Shown one piece after another: positions 3,619 through 23,464 of a stretch of 64,000 bases of DNA. Below the pieces are notes generated by a model, which saw only the letters and a program-made list of their open reading frames with translations, searched no databases and was not told the origin of the DNA. Within the stretch, counting starts at the first letter, position 1. Each line of letters starts with the position of its first letter. A program made the position numbers and the translations under genes. Source of the stretch: Escherichia coli (GTDB taxonomy: Bacteria; Pseudomonadota; Gammaproteobacteria; Enterobacterales; Enterobacteriaceae); assembly GCF_044647545.1 (NCBI RefSeq), contig NZ_CP172818.1; one strand, 5' to 3'.

Positions 3619-4215
3619 ATGAAAAAACCGAATCATTCCGGCAGCGGCCAAATCCGCATTATTGGCGGGCAGTGGCGAGGCCGTAAACTCCCGGTTCCTG
3701 ATAGCCCAGGTCTGCGCCCCACCACCGACCGCGTACGCGAAACGTTGTTTAACTGGCTGGCTCCGGTCATTGTTGACGCCCAATGTCTGGATTGCTTCGC
3801 CGGAAGCGGCGCGCTGGGGCTGGAAGCGTTATCGCGCTACGCTGCGGGGGCCACGTTGATTGAGATGGATCGTGCGGTTTCTCAGCAGTTAATTAAGAAT
3901 CTGGCGACACTAAAAGCAGGCAATGCACGCGTGGTGAACAGCAACGCGATGTCATTCCTGGCGCAAAAAGGCACACCGCATAATATCGTGTTTGTCGATC
4001 CACCGTTCCGCCGTGGATTGTTAGAAGAGACGATAAATTTACTGGAAGATAACGGCTGGCTGGCTGACGAAGCCCTGATTTATGTCGAAAGCGAAGTCGA
4101 AAACGGTCTGCCCACTGTTCCGGCGAACTGGTCATTACATCGGGAAAAAGTGGCGGGTCAGGTGGCTTATCGGCTGTATCAACGCGAAGCACAAGGAGAA
4201 AGTGATGTTGATTAA
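3619..4215 (+). CDS. rsmD: 16S rRNA (guanine966-N2)-methyltransferase RsmD
   Basis: 198 aa; methyltransferase motifs (LDCFAGSG, VFVDPPF); divergent from ftsY. Confidence 0.93.
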   Translation: MKKPNHSGSGQIRIIGGQWRGRKLPVPDSPGLRPTTDRVRETLFNWLAPVIVDAQCLDCFAGSGALGLEALSRYAAGATLIEMDRAVSQQLIKNLATLKAGNARVVNSNAMSFLAQKGTPHNIVFVDPPFRRGLLEETINLLEDNGWLADEALIYVESEVENGLPTVPANWSLHREKVAGQVAYRLYQREAQGESDVD

Positions 4216-4474
4216 TATTGGACGTTTGTTAATGCTCTGCGTTTGGGGATTTTTAATCCTCAACCTGGTGCATCCCTTCCCGCGTCCGCTGAATATTTTT
4301 GTTAACGTGGCGCTGATTTTTACCGTGCTGATGCATGGTATGCAGCTGGCGCTATTGAAATCCACTTTGCCGAAAGATGGCCCGCAGATGACCACCGCCG
4401 AAAAGGTGCGGATTTTCCTTTTCGGCGTGTTTGAACTGCTGGTCTGGCAGAAGAAATTTAAAGTTAAAAAATAA
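4205..4474 (+). CDS. yhhL: Small inner-membrane protein YhhL
   Basis: 89 aa hydrophobic protein from ATG 4205 (GTG at 4202 also in frame); overlaps rsmD 3' end by 11 nt. Confidence 0.8.
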   Translation: MLINIGRLLMLCVWGFLILNLVHPFPRPLNIFVNVALIFTVLMHGMQLALLKSTLPKDGPQMTTAEKVRIFLFGVFELLVWQKKFKVKK

Positions 4475-4476
4475 CC

Positions 4477-4836
4477 TTATTGTTCGCCTACAAAGCTGAC
4501 AAAGCGCGTTCCTTTATAGCTCAGCGTACCTTTATCGCCCACTGTCAGGGCGTGGTACTGCTGGGCGTCGAGGCGAAACGTCTGCTCCATTCCTCCGCTT
4601 TGCGGTTTGAAGCTTGCCTCATAGCGCATACTGGTGCCTGCCGGAGTCACTTCCTGCTGGCGCGAACGGCGATCGTTAATCGGTTTTTCCCGCTTGTTGC
4701 TCACCACCACCAGCTTTTGCTGGAGCGGTGCCATATCATTATCAGCTTTTTCCCGTCGTTGTTGCATAAAACGAAACGATGCGGCGACGATGATTAAGCC
4801 AATGATAACAATAAAGAAAAGAGGTGGTTTACTCAT
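4477..4836 (-). CDS. yhhM: Uncharacterized membrane-anchored protein YhhM
   Basis: 119 aa ORF with single N-terminal TM helix; position between yhhL and yhhN. Confidence 0.85.
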   Translation of the reverse strand: MSKPPLFFIVIIGLIIVAASFRFMQQRREKADNDMAPLQQKLVVVSNKREKPINDRRSRQQEVTPAGTSMRYEASFKPQSGGMEQTFRLDAQQYHALTVGDKGTLSYKGTRFVSFVGEQ

Positions 4837-4976
4837 CTTTATCCCTCATCGGAAAATGCGGAAATAAGCATACCCTGCCAGTTATGGTGTTGTCATCCGT
4901 CCACCCTCGCCACTAAACTGGAAGCAAGACCGTAGGCATTCCGCTTACGAAAAAATAACGAATTCAAGGAACTAAG

Positions 4977-5603
4977 ATGCTTTGGTCGTTTATCGCTGTC
5001 TGTCTTTCCGCATGGCTATCTGTGGATGCATCGTATCGTGGGCCAACCTGGCAACGCTGGGTGTTTAAACCGTTAACCCTTCTTCTCCTGCTGTTGCTGG
5101 CCTGGCAAGCGCCGATGTTCGACGCCATTAGCTATCTGGTGCTGGCGGGGCTGTGTGCCTCACTGCTGGGCGATGCGCTAACCCTGTTGCCACGTCAACG
5201 TCTGATGTACGCCATCGGCGCGTTTTTCCTCTCGCACCTGCTGTACACCATCTATTTCGCCAGTCAGATGACGCTCTCCTTCTTCTGGCCTCTGCCGTTG
5301 GTGCTGTTGGTTCTGGGCGCGCTGTTACTGGCGATTATCTGGACGCGTCTGGAAGAGTATCGTTGGCCTATCTGCACGTTTATCGGCATGACGCTGGTGA
5401 TGGTGTGGCTGGCAGGTGAACTGTGGTTCTTCCGTCCGACCGCTCCGGCACTCTCTGCGTTTGTCGGCGCTTCGTTACTGTTTATCAGTAACTTTGTCTG
5501 GCTGGGTAGTCACTATCGCCGACGCTTCCGTGCGGACAACGCGATTGCTGCGGCCTGCTACTTTGCTGGTCACTTCCTCATCGTCCGCTCGCTGTATCTC
5601 TGA
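4977..5603 (+). CDS. yhhN: Inner membrane protein YhhN (YhhN/TMEM86 family)
   Basis: 208 aa polytopic membrane ORF. Confidence 0.88.
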
Positions 5604-5609
5604 TAAAAC

Positions 5610-5640
5610 TTGACTCTGGAGTCGACTCCAGAGTGTATCC
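5610..5640 (+). promoter_or_regulatory. zntA promoter with ZntR (MerR-type) operator: -35 TTGACT, long spacer carrying dyad ACTCTGGAGTCGACTCCAGAGT
   Basis: Perfect 22-bp palindrome 5613..5634 between -35 and -10 elements, about 40 nt upstream of the zntA ATG. Confidence 0.8.
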
Positions 5641-5676
5641 TTCGGTTAATGAGAAAAAACTTAACCGGAGGATGCC

Positions 5677-7875
5677 ATGTCGACTCCTGACAATCACGGC
5701 AAGAAAGCCCCTCAATTTGCTGCGTTCAAACCGCTAACCACGGTACAGAACGCCAACGACTGTTGCTGCGACGGCGCATGTTCCAGCACGCCAACGCTCT
5801 CTGAAAACGTCTCCGGCACCCGCTATAGCTGGAAAGTCAGCGGCATGGACTGCGCCGCCTGTGCGCGCAAGGTAGAAAATGCCGTGCGCCAGCTTGCAGG
5901 CGTGAATCAGGTGCAGGTGTTGTTCGCCACCGAAAAACTGGTAGTCGATGCCGACAATGACATCCGTGCCCAGGTTGAATCTGCGGTGCAAAAAGCGGGC
6001 TATTCCCTGCGCGATGAACAGGCCGCCGACGAACAACAAGCATCACGCCTGAAAGAGAATCTGCCGCTGATTACGCTAATCGTGATGATGGCAATCAGCT
6101 GGGGTCTGGAGCAGTTCAATCATCCGTTCGGGCAACTGGCGTTTATCGCGACCACGCTGGTTGGGCTGTACCCGATTGCTCGTCAGGCATTACGGCTGAT
6201 CAAATCCGGCAGCTACTTCGCCATTGAAACCTTAATGAGCATAGCCGCTATTGGGGCGCTGTTTATTGGCGCAACGGCTGAAGCTGCGATGGTGTTGCTG
6301 CTGTTTTTGATTGGTGAACGACTGGAAGGCTGGGCCGCCAGCCGCGCGCGTCAGGGCGTTAGCGCGTTAATGGCGCTGAAGCCAGAAACCGCCACGCGTC
6401 TGAGTAACGGTGAGCGTGAAGAGGTGGCGATTAACAGCCTGCGGCCTGGCGATGTGATTGAAGTCGCCGCAGGTGGGCGTTTGCCTGCCGACGGTAAACT
6501 GCTCTCACCGTTTGCCAGTTTTGATGAAAGCGCCCTGACCGGAGAATCCATTCCTGTGGAGCGCGCGACGGGCGATAAAGTTCCTGCAGGAGCCACCAGC
6601 GTAGATCGTCTGGTAACGCTGGAAGTGCTGTCAGAACCGGGTGCCAGCGCCATTGACCGGATTCTGAAACTGATCGAAGAAGCCGAAGAGCGCCGCGCGC
6701 CCATTGAGCGGTTTATCGACCGCTTCAGCCGTATTTATACGCCAGCGATTATGGCCGTCGCCCTGCTGGTAACGCTGGTGCCGCCGCTGCTGTTTGCCGC
6801 CAGCTGGCAAGAGTGGATTTATAAAGGGCTGACGCTGCTGCTGATTGGTTGCCCGTGTGCTTTAGTTATCTCCACGCCCGCGGCGATTACCTCCGGGCTG
6901 GCGGCAGCAGCGCGTCGTGGGGCGTTGATTAAAGGCGGCGCGGCGCTGGAGCAGCTGGGTCGTGTTACCCAGGTGGCGTTTGATAAAACCGGTACGCTGA
7001 CCGTCGGTAAACCGCGCGTTACCGCGATTCATCCGGCAACGGGTATTAGTGAATCTGAACTGCTGACACTGGCGGCGGCGGTCGAGCAAGGCGCGACGCA
7101 TCCACTGGCACAGGCCATTGTGCGCGAAGCACAGATTGCTGAACTCGCCATTCCCACCGCCCAATCACAGCGGGCGCTGGTCGGGTCTGGCATTGAAGCG
7201 CAGGTTAACGGTGAGCGCGTGTTGATATGCGCTGCCGGGAAACATCCCGCTGATGCATTTGCTGGTTTAATTAACGAACTGGAAAGCGCCGGGCAAACGG
7301 TAGTGCTGGTAGTACGTAACGATGACGTGCTGGGTATCATTGCATTGCAGGATACTCTACGCGCCGATGCTGCAACTGCTATCAGTGAACTGAACGCGCT
7401 GGGCGTCAAAGGGGTGATCCTCACCGGCGATAATCCACGCGCAGCGGCGGCAATTGCCGGGGAGTTGGGGCTGGAGTTTAAAGCGGGCCTGTTGCCGGAA
7501 GATAAAGTCAAAGCGGTGACCGAGCTGAATCAACATGCGCCGCTGGCGATGGTCGGTGATGGTATTAACGACGCGCCAGCGATGAAAGCTGCCGCCATCG
7601 GGATTGCAATGGGTAGCGGCACAGACGTGGCGCTGGAAACCGCCGATGCAGCATTAACCCATAACCACCTGCGCGGTCTGGTGCAAATGATTGAACTGGC
7701 ACGCGCCACTCACGCCAATATCCGCCAGAACATCACTATTGCGCTGGGGCTGAAAGGCGTTTTCCTCGTCACGACGCTGTTAGGGATGACCGGACTGTGG
7801 CTGGCGGTGCTGGCAGATACGGGTGCGACGGTGCTGGTGACGGCGAATGCGTTAAGGCTGTTGCGCAGGAAATAA
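5677..7875 (+). CDS. zntA: Zn(II)/Cd(II)/Pb(II)-translocating P-type ATPase ZntA
   Basis: 732 aa; N-terminal metal-binding GMDCAAC, CPC transmembrane motif, DKTGTLT phosphorylation site, GDGINDAP hinge. Confidence 0.97.
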   Translation: MSTPDNHGKKAPQFAAFKPLTTVQNANDCCCDGACSSTPTLSENVSGTRYSWKVSGMDCAACARKVENAVRQLAGVNQVQVLFATEKLVVDADNDIRAQVESAVQKAGYSLRDEQAADEQQASRLKENLPLITLIVMMAISWGLEQFNHPFGQLAFIATTLVGLYPIARQALRLIKSGSYFAIETLMSIAAIGALFIGATAEAAMVLLLFLIGERLEGWAASRARQGVSALMALKPETATRLSNGEREEVAINSLRPGDVIEVAAGGRLPADGKLLSPFASFDESALTGESIPVERATGDKVPAGATSVDRLVTLEVLSEPGASAIDRILKLIEEAEERRAPIERFIDRFSRIYTPAIMAVALLVTLVPPLLFAASWQEWIYKGLTLLLIGCPCALVISTPAAITSGLAAAARRGALIKGGAALEQLGRVTQVAFDKTGTLTVGKPRVTAIHPATGISESELLTLAAAVEQGATHPLAQAIVREAQIAELAIPTAQSQRALVGSGIEAQVNGERVLICAAGKHPADAFAGLINELESAGQTVVLVVRNDDVLGIIALQDTLRADAATAISELNALGVKGVILTGDNPRAAAAIAGELGLEFKAGLLPEDKVKAVTELNQHAPLAMVGDGINDAPAMKAAAIGIAMGSGTDVALETADAALTHNHLRGLVQMIELARATHANIRQNITIALGLKGVFLVTTLLGMTGLWLAVLADTGATVLVTANALRLLRRK

Positions 7876-15411: not shown

Positions 15412-18235
<2,824 letters not shown>

Positions 18236-18278
18236 CTATTAAAATTAAGTTCGTACGTCTGTAAAAAAGGATTTTACG

Positions 18279-21200
18279 ATGAGCGGAAAACCGGCGGCGC
18301 GTCAGGGCGACATGACGCAGTATGGCGGTAGCATTGTTCAGGGTTCTGCCGGGGTGCGTATTGGTGCCCCCACCGGCGTGGCCTGTTCAGTGTGCCCCGG
18401 CGGGGTGACGTCCGGTCATCCGGTCAATCCGCTGCTGGGTGCAAAGGTCCTTCCCGGCGAAACCGACCTTGCCCTGCCCGCCCCGCTGCCGTTCATCCTC
18501 TCCCGCACCTACAGCAGTTACCGGACAAAAACGTCCGCGCCGGTGGGGAGCCTCGGCCCCGGCTGGAAAATGCCTGCGGATATCCGCTTACAGCTGCGCG
18601 ATAACACACTGATACTCAGTGATAACGGCGGCAGAAGCCTGTATTTTGAGCACCTGTTTCCCGGTGAGGACGGTTACAGCCGCAGCGAGTCACTCTGGCT
18701 GGTGCGCGGCGGCGTGGCGAAACTGGATGAAGGTCACCGGCTGGCCGCACTCTGGCAGGCGCTGCCGGAAGAGCTTCGCCTGAGTCCGCATCGTTATCTG
18801 GCGACGAACAGTCCACAGGGGCCGTGGTGGGTACTCGGCTGGTGTGAGCGGGTGCCGGAGGCGGATGAGGTGCTGCCTGCGCCGCTGCCGCCGTACCGGG
18901 TACTGACCGGGCTGGTGGACCGCTTCGGGCGCACACAGACGCTCCACCGCGAAGCCGCCGGTGAATTCAGCGGCGAAATCACCGGCGTGACGGATGGTGC
19001 CGGGCGTCACTTCCGGCTGGTACTGACCACGCAGGCGCTGCGGGCAGAAGAGGCCCGGCAGCAGGCCATTTCCGGCGGGACGGAACCGTCCGCTTTTCCT
19101 GATACCCTGCCGGGTTACACCGAATATGGCCGGGACAACGGTATCCGCCTGTCCGCCGTGTGGCTGACGCACGACCCGGAATATCCGGAGAATTTACCTG
19201 CCGCGCCGCTGGTGCGCTATGGCTGGACGCCACGCGGCGAACTGGCGGTGGTGTATGACCGCAGCAATACACAGGTGCGCAGCTTTACTTACGATGATAA
19301 ATACCGGGGCCGGATGGTGGCGCACCGTCACACGGGCCGGCCGGAAATCCGTTACCGTTACGACAGTGACGGGCGGGTGACAGAACAGCTAAACCCGGCA
19401 GGCTTAAGCTACACCTATCTGTTATGAGCAAAACCGCATCACCATCACCGACAGCCTGAACCGCCGTGAAGTCCTGCATACGCAGGCGAAGGCGGCCTGA
19501 AGCGGGTGGTGAAAAAGGAACACGCGGACGGCAGCGTCACGCAGAGTCAGTTTGACGCGGTGGGCAGGCTTAAGACACAGACGGATGCCGCAGGCCGGAC
19601 AACAGAATACAGCCCGGATGTGGTGACGGGCCTCATCACGCGCATCACCACGCCGGATGGCAGGGCATCGGCGTTTTACTATAACCACCACAGCCAGTTA
19701 ACGTCAGCCACCGGGCCTGACGGGCTGGAAATACGCCGGGAATATGATGAATCCGGCCGTCTGATTCAGGAAACCGCCCCTGACGGCGATATCACCCGCT
19801 ACCGTTATGATAATCCACACAGTGACTTCCCCTGCGCAACGGAAGATGCCACCGGCAGCCGGAAAACCATGACGTGGAGCCGTTACGGTCAGTTGCTGAG
19901 CTTCACCGACTGTTCCGGCTACCAGACCCGTTATGACCATGACCGCTTCGGGCAGATGACGGCGGTGCACCGCGAGGAAGGCCTGAGCCAGTGCCGCGCA
20001 TACGACAGCCGTGGACAGTTAATTGCCGTGAAAGACACGCAGGGCCATGAAACGCGGTATGAATACAACATCGCCGGTGACCTGACCGCCGTCATTGCCC
20101 CGGACGGCAGCAGAAACGGGACACAGTACGATGCGTGGGGAAAGGCCATCCGTACCACGCAGGGCGGGCTGACCCGCAGTATGGAATACGATGCTGCAGG
20201 ACGGGTCATCCGCCTGACAAACGAAAACGGCAGCCACACCACCTTCCGTTACGATGTACTCGACCGGCTGATACAGGAAACCGGCTTTGACGGCCGCACA
20301 CAGCGTTACCACCACGACCTGACCGGCAAACTTATCCGCAGCGAGGATGAGGGGCTGGTCACCCACTGGCACTATGACGAAGCAGACCGCATCACGCAGC
20401 GAACGGTGAATGGTGAAACCGCAGAACAGTGGCGGTACGACGAACGCGGCTGGCTGACACAAATCAGCCATCTCAGCGAAGGGCACCGGGTGACGGTGCA
20501 TTACGGGTATGATGAGAAAGGCCGCCTGACCGGTGAGCGCCAGACGGTGCATCATCCGCAGACGGAAGCACTGCTCTGGCAGCATGAGACCAGACATGCG
20601 TACAACGCGCAGGGGCTGGCGAACCGCTGTATACCGGACAACCTGCCCGCCGTGGAATGGCTGACTTATGGCAGTGGTTACCTGGCAGGGATGAAACTCG
20701 GCGACACACCGCTGGTGGAGTACACCCGCGACCGCCTGCACCGGGAAACGCTGCGCAGCTTCGGCCGTTATGAACTCACCACCGCTTATACCCCTGCCGG
20801 GCAGTTACAGAGCCAGCACCTGAACAGCCTGCAGTATGACCGCGATTACACCTGGAACGACAACGGCGAACTCATTCGCATCAGCAGCCCGCGCCAGACC
20901 CGGAGTTACAGCTACAGCGACTCCGGCAGGCTGACCGGCGTTCACACCACCGCAGCGAACCTGGATATCCGCATCCCGTATGCCACGGACCCGGCAGGTA
21001 ACCGCCTGCCCGACCCGGAGCTGCACCCGGACAGCACCCTCAGCATGTGGCCGGATAACCGTATCGCCCGTGACGCGCACTATCTTTACCGGTATGACCG
21101 TCACGGCAGGCTGACGGAGAAAACCGACCTCATCCCGGAAGGGGTTATCCGCACGGATGATGAGCGGACTCACCGGTACCATTACGACAGCCGGCACCGG

Positions 21201-22514
21201 CTGGTGCACTACACGCGGACACAATATGCAGAGCCGCTGGTCGAAAGTCGCTATCTTTACGACCCGCTGGGCCGCAGGGTGGCAAAACGGGTGTGGCGGC
21301 GTGAACGGGACCTGACGGGCTGGATGTCGCTGTCACGGAAACCGGAAGTGACCTGGTACGGCTGGGACGGCGACCGCCTGACCACGATACAGAACGACAG
21401 AACCCGCATCCAGACGGTTTATCAGCCGGGGAGCTTCACACCACTCATCAGGGTCGAAACCGCCACCGGTGAGCAGGCGAAAACGCAGCGCCGCAGCCTG
21501 GCGGATGCGCTTCAGCAGTCCGGCGGCGAAGACGGTGGCAGTGTGGTGTTCCCGCCGGTGCTGGTGCAGATGCTCGACCGGCTGGAAAGTGAAATCCTTA
21601 CTGACCGGGTGAGTGAGGAAAGCCGCCGCTGGCTGGCATCGTGCGGCCTGACGGTGGCGCAGATGCAAAACCAGATGGACCCGGTGTACACGCCGGCGAG
21701 AAAAATCCACCTGTACCACTGCGACCATCGCGGCCTGCCGCTGGCGCTTGTCAGCACGGAAGGGGCAACAGAATGGTGCGCAGAATACGATGAGTGGGGC
21801 AACCTGCTGAATGAAGAGAACCCGCACCAGCTGCAACAGCTTATCCGCCTGCCGGGTCAGCAGTATGATGAGGAGTCAGGCCTGTATTACAACCGCCACC
21901 GCTATTATGACCCGCTGCAGGGGCGGTATATCACTCAGGATCCGATTGGGCTGAAGGGGGGATGGAACCTGTATGGATATCAATTGAATCCGATATCAGA
22001 CATCGACCCCCTGGGTTTATCTATGTGGGAGGATGCAAAATCGGGGGCATGTACTAATGGTCTTTGCGGCACACTATCCGCTATGATAGGTCCAGATAAG
22101 TTTGATTCTATAGATAGCACCGCATATGACGCCTTAAATAAAATAAATAGCCAATCTATTTGCGAAGATAAAGAGTTCGCTGGTTTAATATGTAAGGATA
22201 ATAGTGGCAGATATTTCTCAACAGCACCTAACCGAGGGGAAAGAAAAGGATCATATCCATTCAATAGCCCTTGCCCTAATGGTACTGAGAAAGTATCAGC
22301 TTATCATACTCATGGTGCAGATAGTCATGGAGAATATTGGGACGAAATATTTTCAGGCAAAGATGAGAAAATAGTTAAAAGTAAAGATAACAATATCAAG
22401 TCATTTTATTTGGGCACGCCCAGTGGTAATTTTAAAGCAATAGATAACCACGGGAAGGAAATAACAAACGGAAAAGGATTACCTAATGTCTGCAGAGTTC
22501 ATGGTAATATGTAA
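18279..22514 (+). pseudogene. rhsB: Rhs core protein with C-terminal toxin tip (RhsB-like), interrupted by a compensated frameshift at about 19422..19484
   Basis: Two same-frame ORFs (18279..19427, 19506..22514) with YD-repeat content, PxxxxDPxGL core end at about 21945..22020 and an AT-rich tip; two in-frame TGA codons between them. Confidence 0.85.
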
Positions 22515-22869
22515 AAAAATATTTTTTAGGAACTGTGTCATTGTATCTTTGTTTGTTTTTACATACAACACATGGGCGCAGTGTAATAATAATATTAAAA
22601 TAATGCGCAAGTATGAAAGTGAGGGTAAATATACCGTTAGAAATTTGGTTAAAAATAAAGCTATAGCATTGGAATTAGCTGAGATATATGTTAAGAATCG
22701 TTATGGGCAGGATGCCGCAGAAGAAGAAAAACCATATAAAATCACTGAGTTAACAACAAGTTGGGTTGTTGAAGGCACCATTCACTCAGACCAAATTGCT
22801 GGTGGGGTTTTTATTATAGAAATAGGCAAAAATGATGGGGTAATTCTGAATTTTGGCCACGGAAAATAA
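22486..22869 (+). CDS. yhhH: Putative Rhs immunity protein YhhH
   Basis: 127 aa AT-rich ORF overlapping the rhs stop; alternative start at 22501. Confidence 0.7.
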
Positions 22870-22973
22870 GTATGTAAGGATAATCAAACATCGTGTGCGC
22901 TGATGGCAGAGTAGGTGGAGGACTCCAGACAGTCAAACGATAAAAAAAGATAGCCTTTATGGAGGCTCCTGCA

Positions 22974-23357
22974 ATGTCAAATACATACCAGAAAAGAAAG
23001 GCAAGTAAAGAGTATGGTTTATATAATCAATGTAAGAAACTAAATGATGATGAATTATTTCGCTTACTTGATGATCACAATTCCTTGAAAAGGATTTCAT
23101 CTGCCAGAGTATTACAGTTAAGAGGTGGGCAAGACGCTGTTAGATTGGTAATTGAGTTCTGCTCTGATAAAAATTATATCCGTAGAGATATCGGAGCATT
23201 TATACTCGGGCAAATAAAAATTTGCAAAAAATGCGAAGATAATGTGTTTAATATTTTGAACAATATGGCATTGAATGATAAGAGCGCTTGCGTTCGAGCT
23301 ACGGCAATCGAGTCAACGGCCAGGGAAAGATCATCAAAAGTACACTTTTTGTACTAA
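22974..23357 (+). CDS. Hypothetical protein, possibly an orphan Rhs-associated immunity protein (helical-repeat-like)
   Basis: ORF 22959..23357; likely start 22974 after GGAGG; AT-rich, between yhhH and H-repeat transposase. Confidence 0.4.
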   Translation: MSNTYQKRKASKEYGLYNQCKKLNDDELFRLLDDHNSLKRISSARVLQLRGGQDAVRLVIEFCSDKNYIRRDIGAFILGQIKICKKCEDNVFNILNNMALNDKSACVRATAIESTARERSSKVHFLY

Positions 23358-23464
23358 ATAATTCGCATTTTATGTTTAAAAATTGAGATATTCCTCATTA
23401 CCTGAAGCTGTTTTTTATTGCTTATACATGATCAAATACTCCTTACATAATTAAGGAGAACAAA

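Follow-up and report, generated by a model that had tools for sequence, protein, structure and literature searches.

A yibA remnant behind yhhH in the RhsB island of Escherichia coli, cut by ISEc1 and known as the pseudogene yrhC

In the orphan modules that Jackson 2009 (PMC2935791) and Poole 2011 (PMC3150448) describe for Rhs and CDI loci, an older immunity gene is left 3′ of a newer cassette, and the classical examples keep a piece of the Rhs core and the old toxin tip before that immunity gene. The elements rhsA and rhsB are documented partners in recA-dependent recombination (PMC2935791). Among the toxin/immunity pairs catalogued by Zhang 2012 (PMC3482391), Imm-NTF2-2 partners Tox-JAB-2/DUF4329 and Imm-HEAT partners Ntox34. 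The tip of K-12 RhsA corresponded to Ntox34 (Pfam, E = 8.5e-44), and the HEAT-repeat gene yibA began 20 nt past rhsA. The passage of Poole 2011 (PMC3150448) that cites Vlazny & Hill 1995 describes the neutralization by yibA of the growth inhibition due to the RhsA C-terminus, and it concerns the full-length gene only. The RefSeq annotation of MG1655 has, between yhhH and yhhI, the pseudogene yrhC (b4552), located at exactly the position of the ORF studied here; one E. coli paper refers to yrhC simply as a pseudogene. The other uses of the name "yrhC" in the literature were mostly unrelated acronyms or a B. subtilis gene, and the "YibA" of one paper was a misspelling of YbiA/NADAR, irrelevant to this locus. 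In strain B1 (NZ_CP157955.1) and in many other assemblies, the rhsA locus is organized as rhs (Tox-JAB-2), yhhH, a 52-nt spacer, a 32-nt rhsA remnant, and yibA. In this arrangement yibA has its full length of 280 aa, and additional orphan Rhs fragments follow it. The yibA of these strains, standing behind yhhH at rhsA, qualifies as a genuine, intact orphan immunity gene.

The window analysed here is a stretch of 64,000 nt of E. coli DNA (contig NZ_CP172818.1, assembly GCF_044647545.1). It shows the gene order nikE-nikR-rhsB-yhhH-[ORF]-yhhI-yhhJ-rbbA of this E. coli region, the ORF being flanked by yhhH (Imm-NTF2-2, 22486–22869) on the 5′ side and by the ISAs1-family transposase gene yhhI (23465–24601) on the 3′ side. 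A first reading made from the sequence alone (the sequence-only reading) had pointed out a small AT-rich ORF of 127 to 132 aa between yhhH and the H-repeat transposase gene, and this was confirmed, with a GC content of 34.6% as compared to 60–65% in the Rhs core. The long form, 22959–23357 on the + strand, encodes 132 aa from the first ATG, and the short form, 22974–23357 on the same strand, encodes 127 aa; the stop codon is at 23355–23357. In the K-12 rhsA-yibA locus, ATG 22959 reads GTG; this start is not conserved, and the length to be considered is therefore 127 aa. ATG 22974 is the start used by PGAP for both yibA and the pseudogene, and corresponds to residue 1 of the crystallised YibA. 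The ribosome binding site previously judged plausible was found again as a Shine-Dalgarno motif read from the sequence, GGAGG at 22961–22965 (+ strand), 8 nt before ATG 22974; it is also kept 5′ of full-length yibA in the K-12 rhsA-yibA comparison. We estimated the chance that 127 codons stay open, given the base composition, to be about 1e-4. On this estimate the ORF is far beyond chance, and its homology to YibA decides the matter.

No sigma-70-like promoter was seen on the + strand in the 105-nt gap 5′ of the ORF, and the terminator-like matches near it were on the opposite strand or within the rhsB tip. As no + strand promoter-like site lay upstream, expression of the ORF, if any, would depend on read-through from rhsB-yhhH. 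An Rfam search over 22400–24800 gave no match at E ≤ 1, and a non-coding RNA in the spacer was rejected on this ground. An antisense ORF (22957–23100, 47 aa) was without support.

The comparison with Rhs immunity genes that had been proposed led to yibA, directly 3′ of rhsA, as the gene from which the ORF derives. Using phmmer against the PDB, residues 1–118 of the ORF aligned to residues 1–118 of 1OYZ (YibA, 280 aa) with E = 7.3e-73 and about 99% identity, and tblastn located YibA residues 1–117 in the window at 98.3% identity. From phmmer, DNA alignment and the MG1655 annotation, the gene-derived part of the ORF was 22974–23320 only (+ strand), corresponding to codons 1–116 of the 280-codon HEAT-repeat immunity gene yibA, so that 5′ 41% of the gene (116/280 codons, yibA′) is left; 23321–23357 belongs to the IS. 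The Pfam matches of the ORF to HEAT/HEAT_2 were weak, with a HEAT_2 score of 21.3 (cut-off 27.7) as compared to 79.9 for full-length YibA. Together with the match to YibA, an all-helical HEAT protein (E = 7e-73), they account for the "helical-repeat-like" appearance first noticed. In comparison with YibA of K-12 (b3594; PDB 1OYZ), the window was alike in residues 1–116 (99%), in the ribosome binding site, and in the 52 nt upstream including the rhsA end; it differed in having no residues 117–280, an 11-residue IS tail instead, and yhhH upstream rather than the Ntox34 tip. The comparison with the full-length yibA locus of strain B1 (NZ_CP157955.1) showed 0 mismatches over 22870–23320 (100% DNA identity) and divergence from 23321, the B1-type gene continuing to its end and the window gene being cut by ISEc1 at codon 116. 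The 164 missing residues, YibA 117–280, were absent when sought by tblastn and blastn across the window, and the presence of the rest of yibA elsewhere in the window was rejected. In all the genomes that were inspected, PGAP describes the corresponding stretch as [quoted passage not shown]. Judged by sequence homology, the ORF is a yibA remnant truncated by ISEc1, and it is not a new gene, its identity being already known and annotated as yrhC. The correct label would be a yibA-derived pseudogene yrhC cut by ISEc1, neither a new small protein nor an intact orphan immunity gene, and there is little importance beyond this correct annotation.

The truncating element, ISEc1 (H-rpt, ISAs1 family), covers 1291 bp from 23321 to 24611 on the + strand, between inverted repeats located at 23321–23338 and 24594–24611. 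This terminal inverted repeat is 18 nt long and 83% complementary. In thousands of E. coli genomes, ISEc1/ISAs1 copies unlinked to this locus match precisely the 1291-bp unit (query 1–1291), and copies located elsewhere in E. coli genomes start matching at window position 23321–23322. Base 23321 is at the same time the first base of the IS and a synonymous third base of codon 116. The end of the ORF, 23321–23357 (+ strand), is read from the left end of ISEc1 and provides codons 117–127 (RERSSKVHFLY) and the TAA stop. The junction peptide of the predicted chimera, IESTARERSSK / …AIESTARERSSK…, consists of YibA residues running into IS-encoded residues. The transposase gene yhhI (23465–24601, + strand) is intact and encodes 378 aa with matches to Pfam DDE_Tnp_1_assoc (E = 7e-34) and DDE_Tnp_1 (E = 7.5e-31); its PGAP name is "ISAs1-like element ISEc1 family transposase". 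The same copy of yhhI is called a pseudogene with an internal stop by PGAP in 1919D3, NN5, E2865, and ATCC 8739.

With its DDE_Tnp_1 transposase, its terminal inverted repeats and its existence as a discrete genome-repeated unit, the element has the features of the ISAs1 family. It resembles described ISEc1/H-rpt copies in its 1291 bp, its 18-nt inverted repeats, its 378-aa DDE transposase, and its presence in several copies per genome, but it has no flanking direct repeat and so marks a rearrangement or deletion junction, not a simple insertion. No target-site duplication was found around ISEc1, the flanks AGTCAACGGC and ATACAAAAAA being unrelated, and the right flank reached the chromosomal backbone within approximately 50 nt. 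A simple IS insertion was therefore rejected, since the sequence on the right is not yibA and the duplication is missing. From this missing duplication and the loss of the 3′ 59% of yibA, we infer that an IS-associated deletion or rearrangement took place at the yibA′ junction.

The C-terminal tip of the resident rhs gene started after the DPLGL motif (22005–22019) and extended from 22020 to 22514 (+ strand). It contained a DUF4329/Tox-JAB-2 toxin domain (Pfam DUF4329, E = 1.4e-39). The immunity gene yhhH (22486–22869, + strand) matched Imm-NTF2-2 (Pfam PF15631, E = 3.4e-25) and is called "protein YhhH" by PGAP; its first 29 nt (22486–22514) are shared with the end of the rhs tip ORF, as is typical of a tight toxin-immunity coupling. 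Since the resident tip is DUF4329 and yhhH is Imm-NTF2-2, yhhH and not the ORF under study is cognate to rhs here. The 52-nt spacer at 22870–22921, which travels with the Tox-JAB-2/yhhH cassette, was identical in the strain B1 rhsA-locus element and had no homology to K-12 rhsA-yibA, the local alignment starting only at 22922. From there to 22953 (+ strand) lay the 3′-terminal 32 nt of the rhsA (Ntox34) CDS, encoding SRQSNDKKR and the stop, identical to the end of K-12 rhsA.

A displaced toxin tip fragment, which the sequence-only reading had proposed to look for upstream in related strains, was thus present as a vestige in the window, in the form of the last nine RhsA-tip residues (22924–22950). 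When the RhsA C-terminus was used in tblastn on the whole window, only tip residues 122–130 were retrieved, at this position, and the rest of the tip was absent, so that the last 9 tip codons occupy the place directly 5′ of the ORF where a complete Ntox34 tip would stand. The classical Rhs/CDI orphans keep a core piece and the old tip, whereas here the tip is reduced to 32 nt, no core fragment lies upstream, and the immunity gene is truncated, at variance with an Rhs-array orphan whose immunity gene is intact. The proposal that the ORF is an orphan immunity gene whose tip has been lost holds for the origin (yibA, the Ntox34 tip being gone) and not for the integrity of the gene, of which the 5′ 41% remains, cut by ISEc1 and annotated as a pseudogene.

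The order Ntox34 then YibA recurred in K-12, in an orphan module of Salmonella enterica (YibA 74% identical), and in a metagenome contig (44% identical). Ntox34 was upstream of the YibA homologue in two of the six contexts recovered outside E. coli. The remaining four, with more distant YibA homologues, showed no toxin neighbour, the gene being standalone or the contig too short to tell. In Salmonella enterica GCA_025072195.1 (locus 3897–7271), an orphan RHS-core+Ntox34 and a YibA homologue were followed by an orphan DUF4329 and Imm-NTF2-2; this order is opposite to that of E. coli and shows that the two toxin/immunity modules move as independent cassettes. Two tandem YibA-like HEAT-repeat genes, with no toxin gene called nearby, were seen on the Logan SRR32613825 contig (1455–3379) and may be either a poly-immunity arrangement or paralogues of a housekeeping family. 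Other YibA homologues, with 43–51% identity, sit among housekeeping genes.

The yrhC pseudogene of K-12 MG1655 was like the window in position, upstream sequence, start codon, and ISEc1 junction nucleotide, with about 97% DNA identity, and the alignment of the two across the yibA′-ISEc1 junction was ungapped and colinear. It differs in carrying K82*, Q19K, H35R, and S64T, the K-12 haplotype of yrhC, and is annotated up to the stop (246 nt), whereas the window has none of these changes and is open for 127 codons. At 23217–23219 the window reads AAA (Lys); TAA was found in K-12, E2865, ATCC 8739, 2EC1, NN5, and 2017.02.03CC. The sequence-only reading had counted a lack of conservation outside this strain among what would refute its proposal; instead, the yibA′::ISEc1 junction occurred in 1814 of the 5426 complete E. 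coli genomes. This conservation is that of a dead fragment inherited from a common ancestor, and is no demonstration of selection. The haplotypes were surveyed in evenly spaced samples down the ranked list of genome matches, and nearly every sampled junction-bearing genome possessed the K-12 haplotype, 97.0–97.3% identical to the window. Only a small fraction of the complete genomes had an open-frame yrhC (1919D3, TW10573, 2015-01-466, and AS19), and the open-frame 132-aa product was found on at least 1000 contigs in a much larger protein collection. Between K-12 yrhC and K-12 yibA there were four synonymous and four non-synonymous differences (including the nonsense one), giving a dN/dS of approximately 0.25 from tiny counts.

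The yrhC alleles were mosaic, with yibA-type and yrhC-type blocks of varying extent, and all four gametes were observed at 23126 and 23217, which points to recombination or gene conversion. From 19500 to 23320, the window differed by a single nucleotide from the strain B1 rhsA-locus element and by about 3% from K-12 rhsB. These alignments suggest inter-locus gene conversion and mosaicism among Rhs elements. The simplest reading would be that rhs-yhhH-yibA′ was homogenised, up to the IS, against an Rhs element bearing full-length yibA. As the open frame matches a full-length yibA allele exactly, an intact frame in the window would be expected without selection, and recombination, rather than selection, best explains the open frame. 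The first 1.2 kb of rhs had no close match to either the strain B1 rhsA-locus element or K-12 rhsB. Over 8.1 kb and 5.3 kb, the backbone of the window showed 0 mismatches to that of ST648-type genomes and was thus identical to it. The RhsB island (rhs, yhhH, yibA′, and ISEc1; approximately 18214–24664) fills the nikR-yhhJ gap, in which ST648-type genomes such as NZ_CP008697.1 hold a hicAB toxin-antitoxin module and no RhsB island. The two are alternative occupants of one site, and the backbone identity extends to the island edges.

We propose the following history of the locus, in which the order of events and the co-transcription are deduced from the present arrangement. The ancestral Rhs element would have carried an Ntox34 toxin tip followed by the HEAT-repeat immunity gene yibA. 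A Tox-JAB-2 tip and yhhH cassette would then have replaced nearly all of the Ntox34 tip, leaving yibA stranded as a displaced immunity gene, an arrangement which, with yibA entire, persists in many strains at rhsA. Within the rhsB island, ISEc1/H-rpt became joined to yibA after codon 116, probably by an IS-associated deletion or rearrangement. The remnant has retained the yibA ribosome binding site and start, would probably be transcribed with rhsB-yhhH, and remains open for 11 more codons provided by the IS end. In most E. coli, yibA′ has undergone further decay (the K82 stop and three missense changes), and the window copy would have been re-homogenised by recombination or gene conversion with an Rhs element carrying full-length yibA. 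The locus is a tidy textbook case of Rhs evolution, combining cassette displacement, an IS-associated cut, and rhsA/rhsB exchange reshuffling the remnant.

The full-length YibA homologues were all 277–296 aa long, and the only ones as short as the ORF were fragments from E. coli or partial gene calls. Of the invariant or near-invariant columns of the YibA alignment, about half were located beyond residue 116. In the AlphaFold2 model of YibA (pLDDT 93.8), the protein is a 17-helix solenoid and the cut falls within helix 7 (residues 105–121). With 116 of 280 residues, the ORF does not encode the complete solenoid of about 280 aa and 17 helices. The predicted product, made of 6.7 of the 17 YibA helices and a foreign tail, would most likely be unstable and unable to neutralise Ntox34. 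The ORF is thus very probably a non-functional yibA remnant, a pseudogene. Some observations count against this reading: the intact frame and good ribosome binding site in the window mean that the 127-aa protein could be made, the open-frame 132-aa version on at least 1000 contigs is not vanishingly rare, and the dN/dS of about 0.25, although based on tiny counts, is not clearly neutral.

The ORF might alternatively encode an orphan immunity protein that is truncated yet still works: its first three HEAT hairpins, made from the retained ribosome binding site, would bind Ntox34 toxins coming from other E. coli and confer partial protection. Short repeat-protein fragments are sometimes able to fold. 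The frame is open with the yibA translation signals intact, its sequence is identical to that of a functional-looking allele, and open-frame versions are present on the contigs counted above; for CDI/Rhs arrays, it is known that orphan immunity genes are expressed and confer protection (PMC3150448). We nevertheless regard this as improbable, since the fragment is short of 164 of the 280 residues, 10 of the 17 helices, and roughly half the conserved positions, the cut is within a helix, and no natural homologue is so short apart from E. coli fragments and partial calls. Moreover, the dominant and widely spread E. coli allele stops at codon 82, and the identity to a full-length donor allele explains the open frame. 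A fragment that kept immunity would delimit the smallest part of a HEAT-type immunity protein able to bind the toxin, although the evidence points against it.

Slightly less probable still is a role of the fragment as DNA only, a homology patch for rhsB-rhsA exchange that would persist as a by-product of Rhs recombination dynamics and not for any product. The mosaic haplotypes, the near-identity of the window element with the rhsA-locus element up to the IS junction, and the documented recA-dependent recombination between rhsA and rhsB (PMC2935791) would fit such a role. Against it, the 4-kb Rhs core already gives far more homology, and there is no sign of selection on the extra 400 bp, which look like a consequence and not a function. 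We give equally little credit to the possibility that the chimera of YibA 1–116 and 11 ISEc1 residues is translated and acts as a minimal Ntox34-binding decoy, repaired by gene conversion from yibA, the open-frame alleles being selected in some lineages. Finally, the unrelated small protein evoked by the sequence-only reading, or a regulatory RNA within the spacer, has nothing in its favour beyond the existence of the ORF and can practically be discarded: it was rejected by the homology to YibA (E = 7e-73), and the Rfam search and the unsupported antisense ORF also speak against it.

In the window, rhsB (18279–22514) was split into two ORFs, 18279–19427 and 19506–22514. Within 19415–19482, an insertion (+1) and a deletion (−1) separated by about 60 nt were accompanied by five clustered substitutions, leading to two in-frame stops. 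An assembly error at the origin of the frameshifts was rejected, as gaps relative to the identical backbone occurred only at the island edges and the sequence looked clean. The frameshifts look real because the flanking backbone is error-free with respect to the reference, and if so the Rhs toxin of this strain would probably be inactive. The related rhs element of strain B1 also has an internal stop, at another codon (842).
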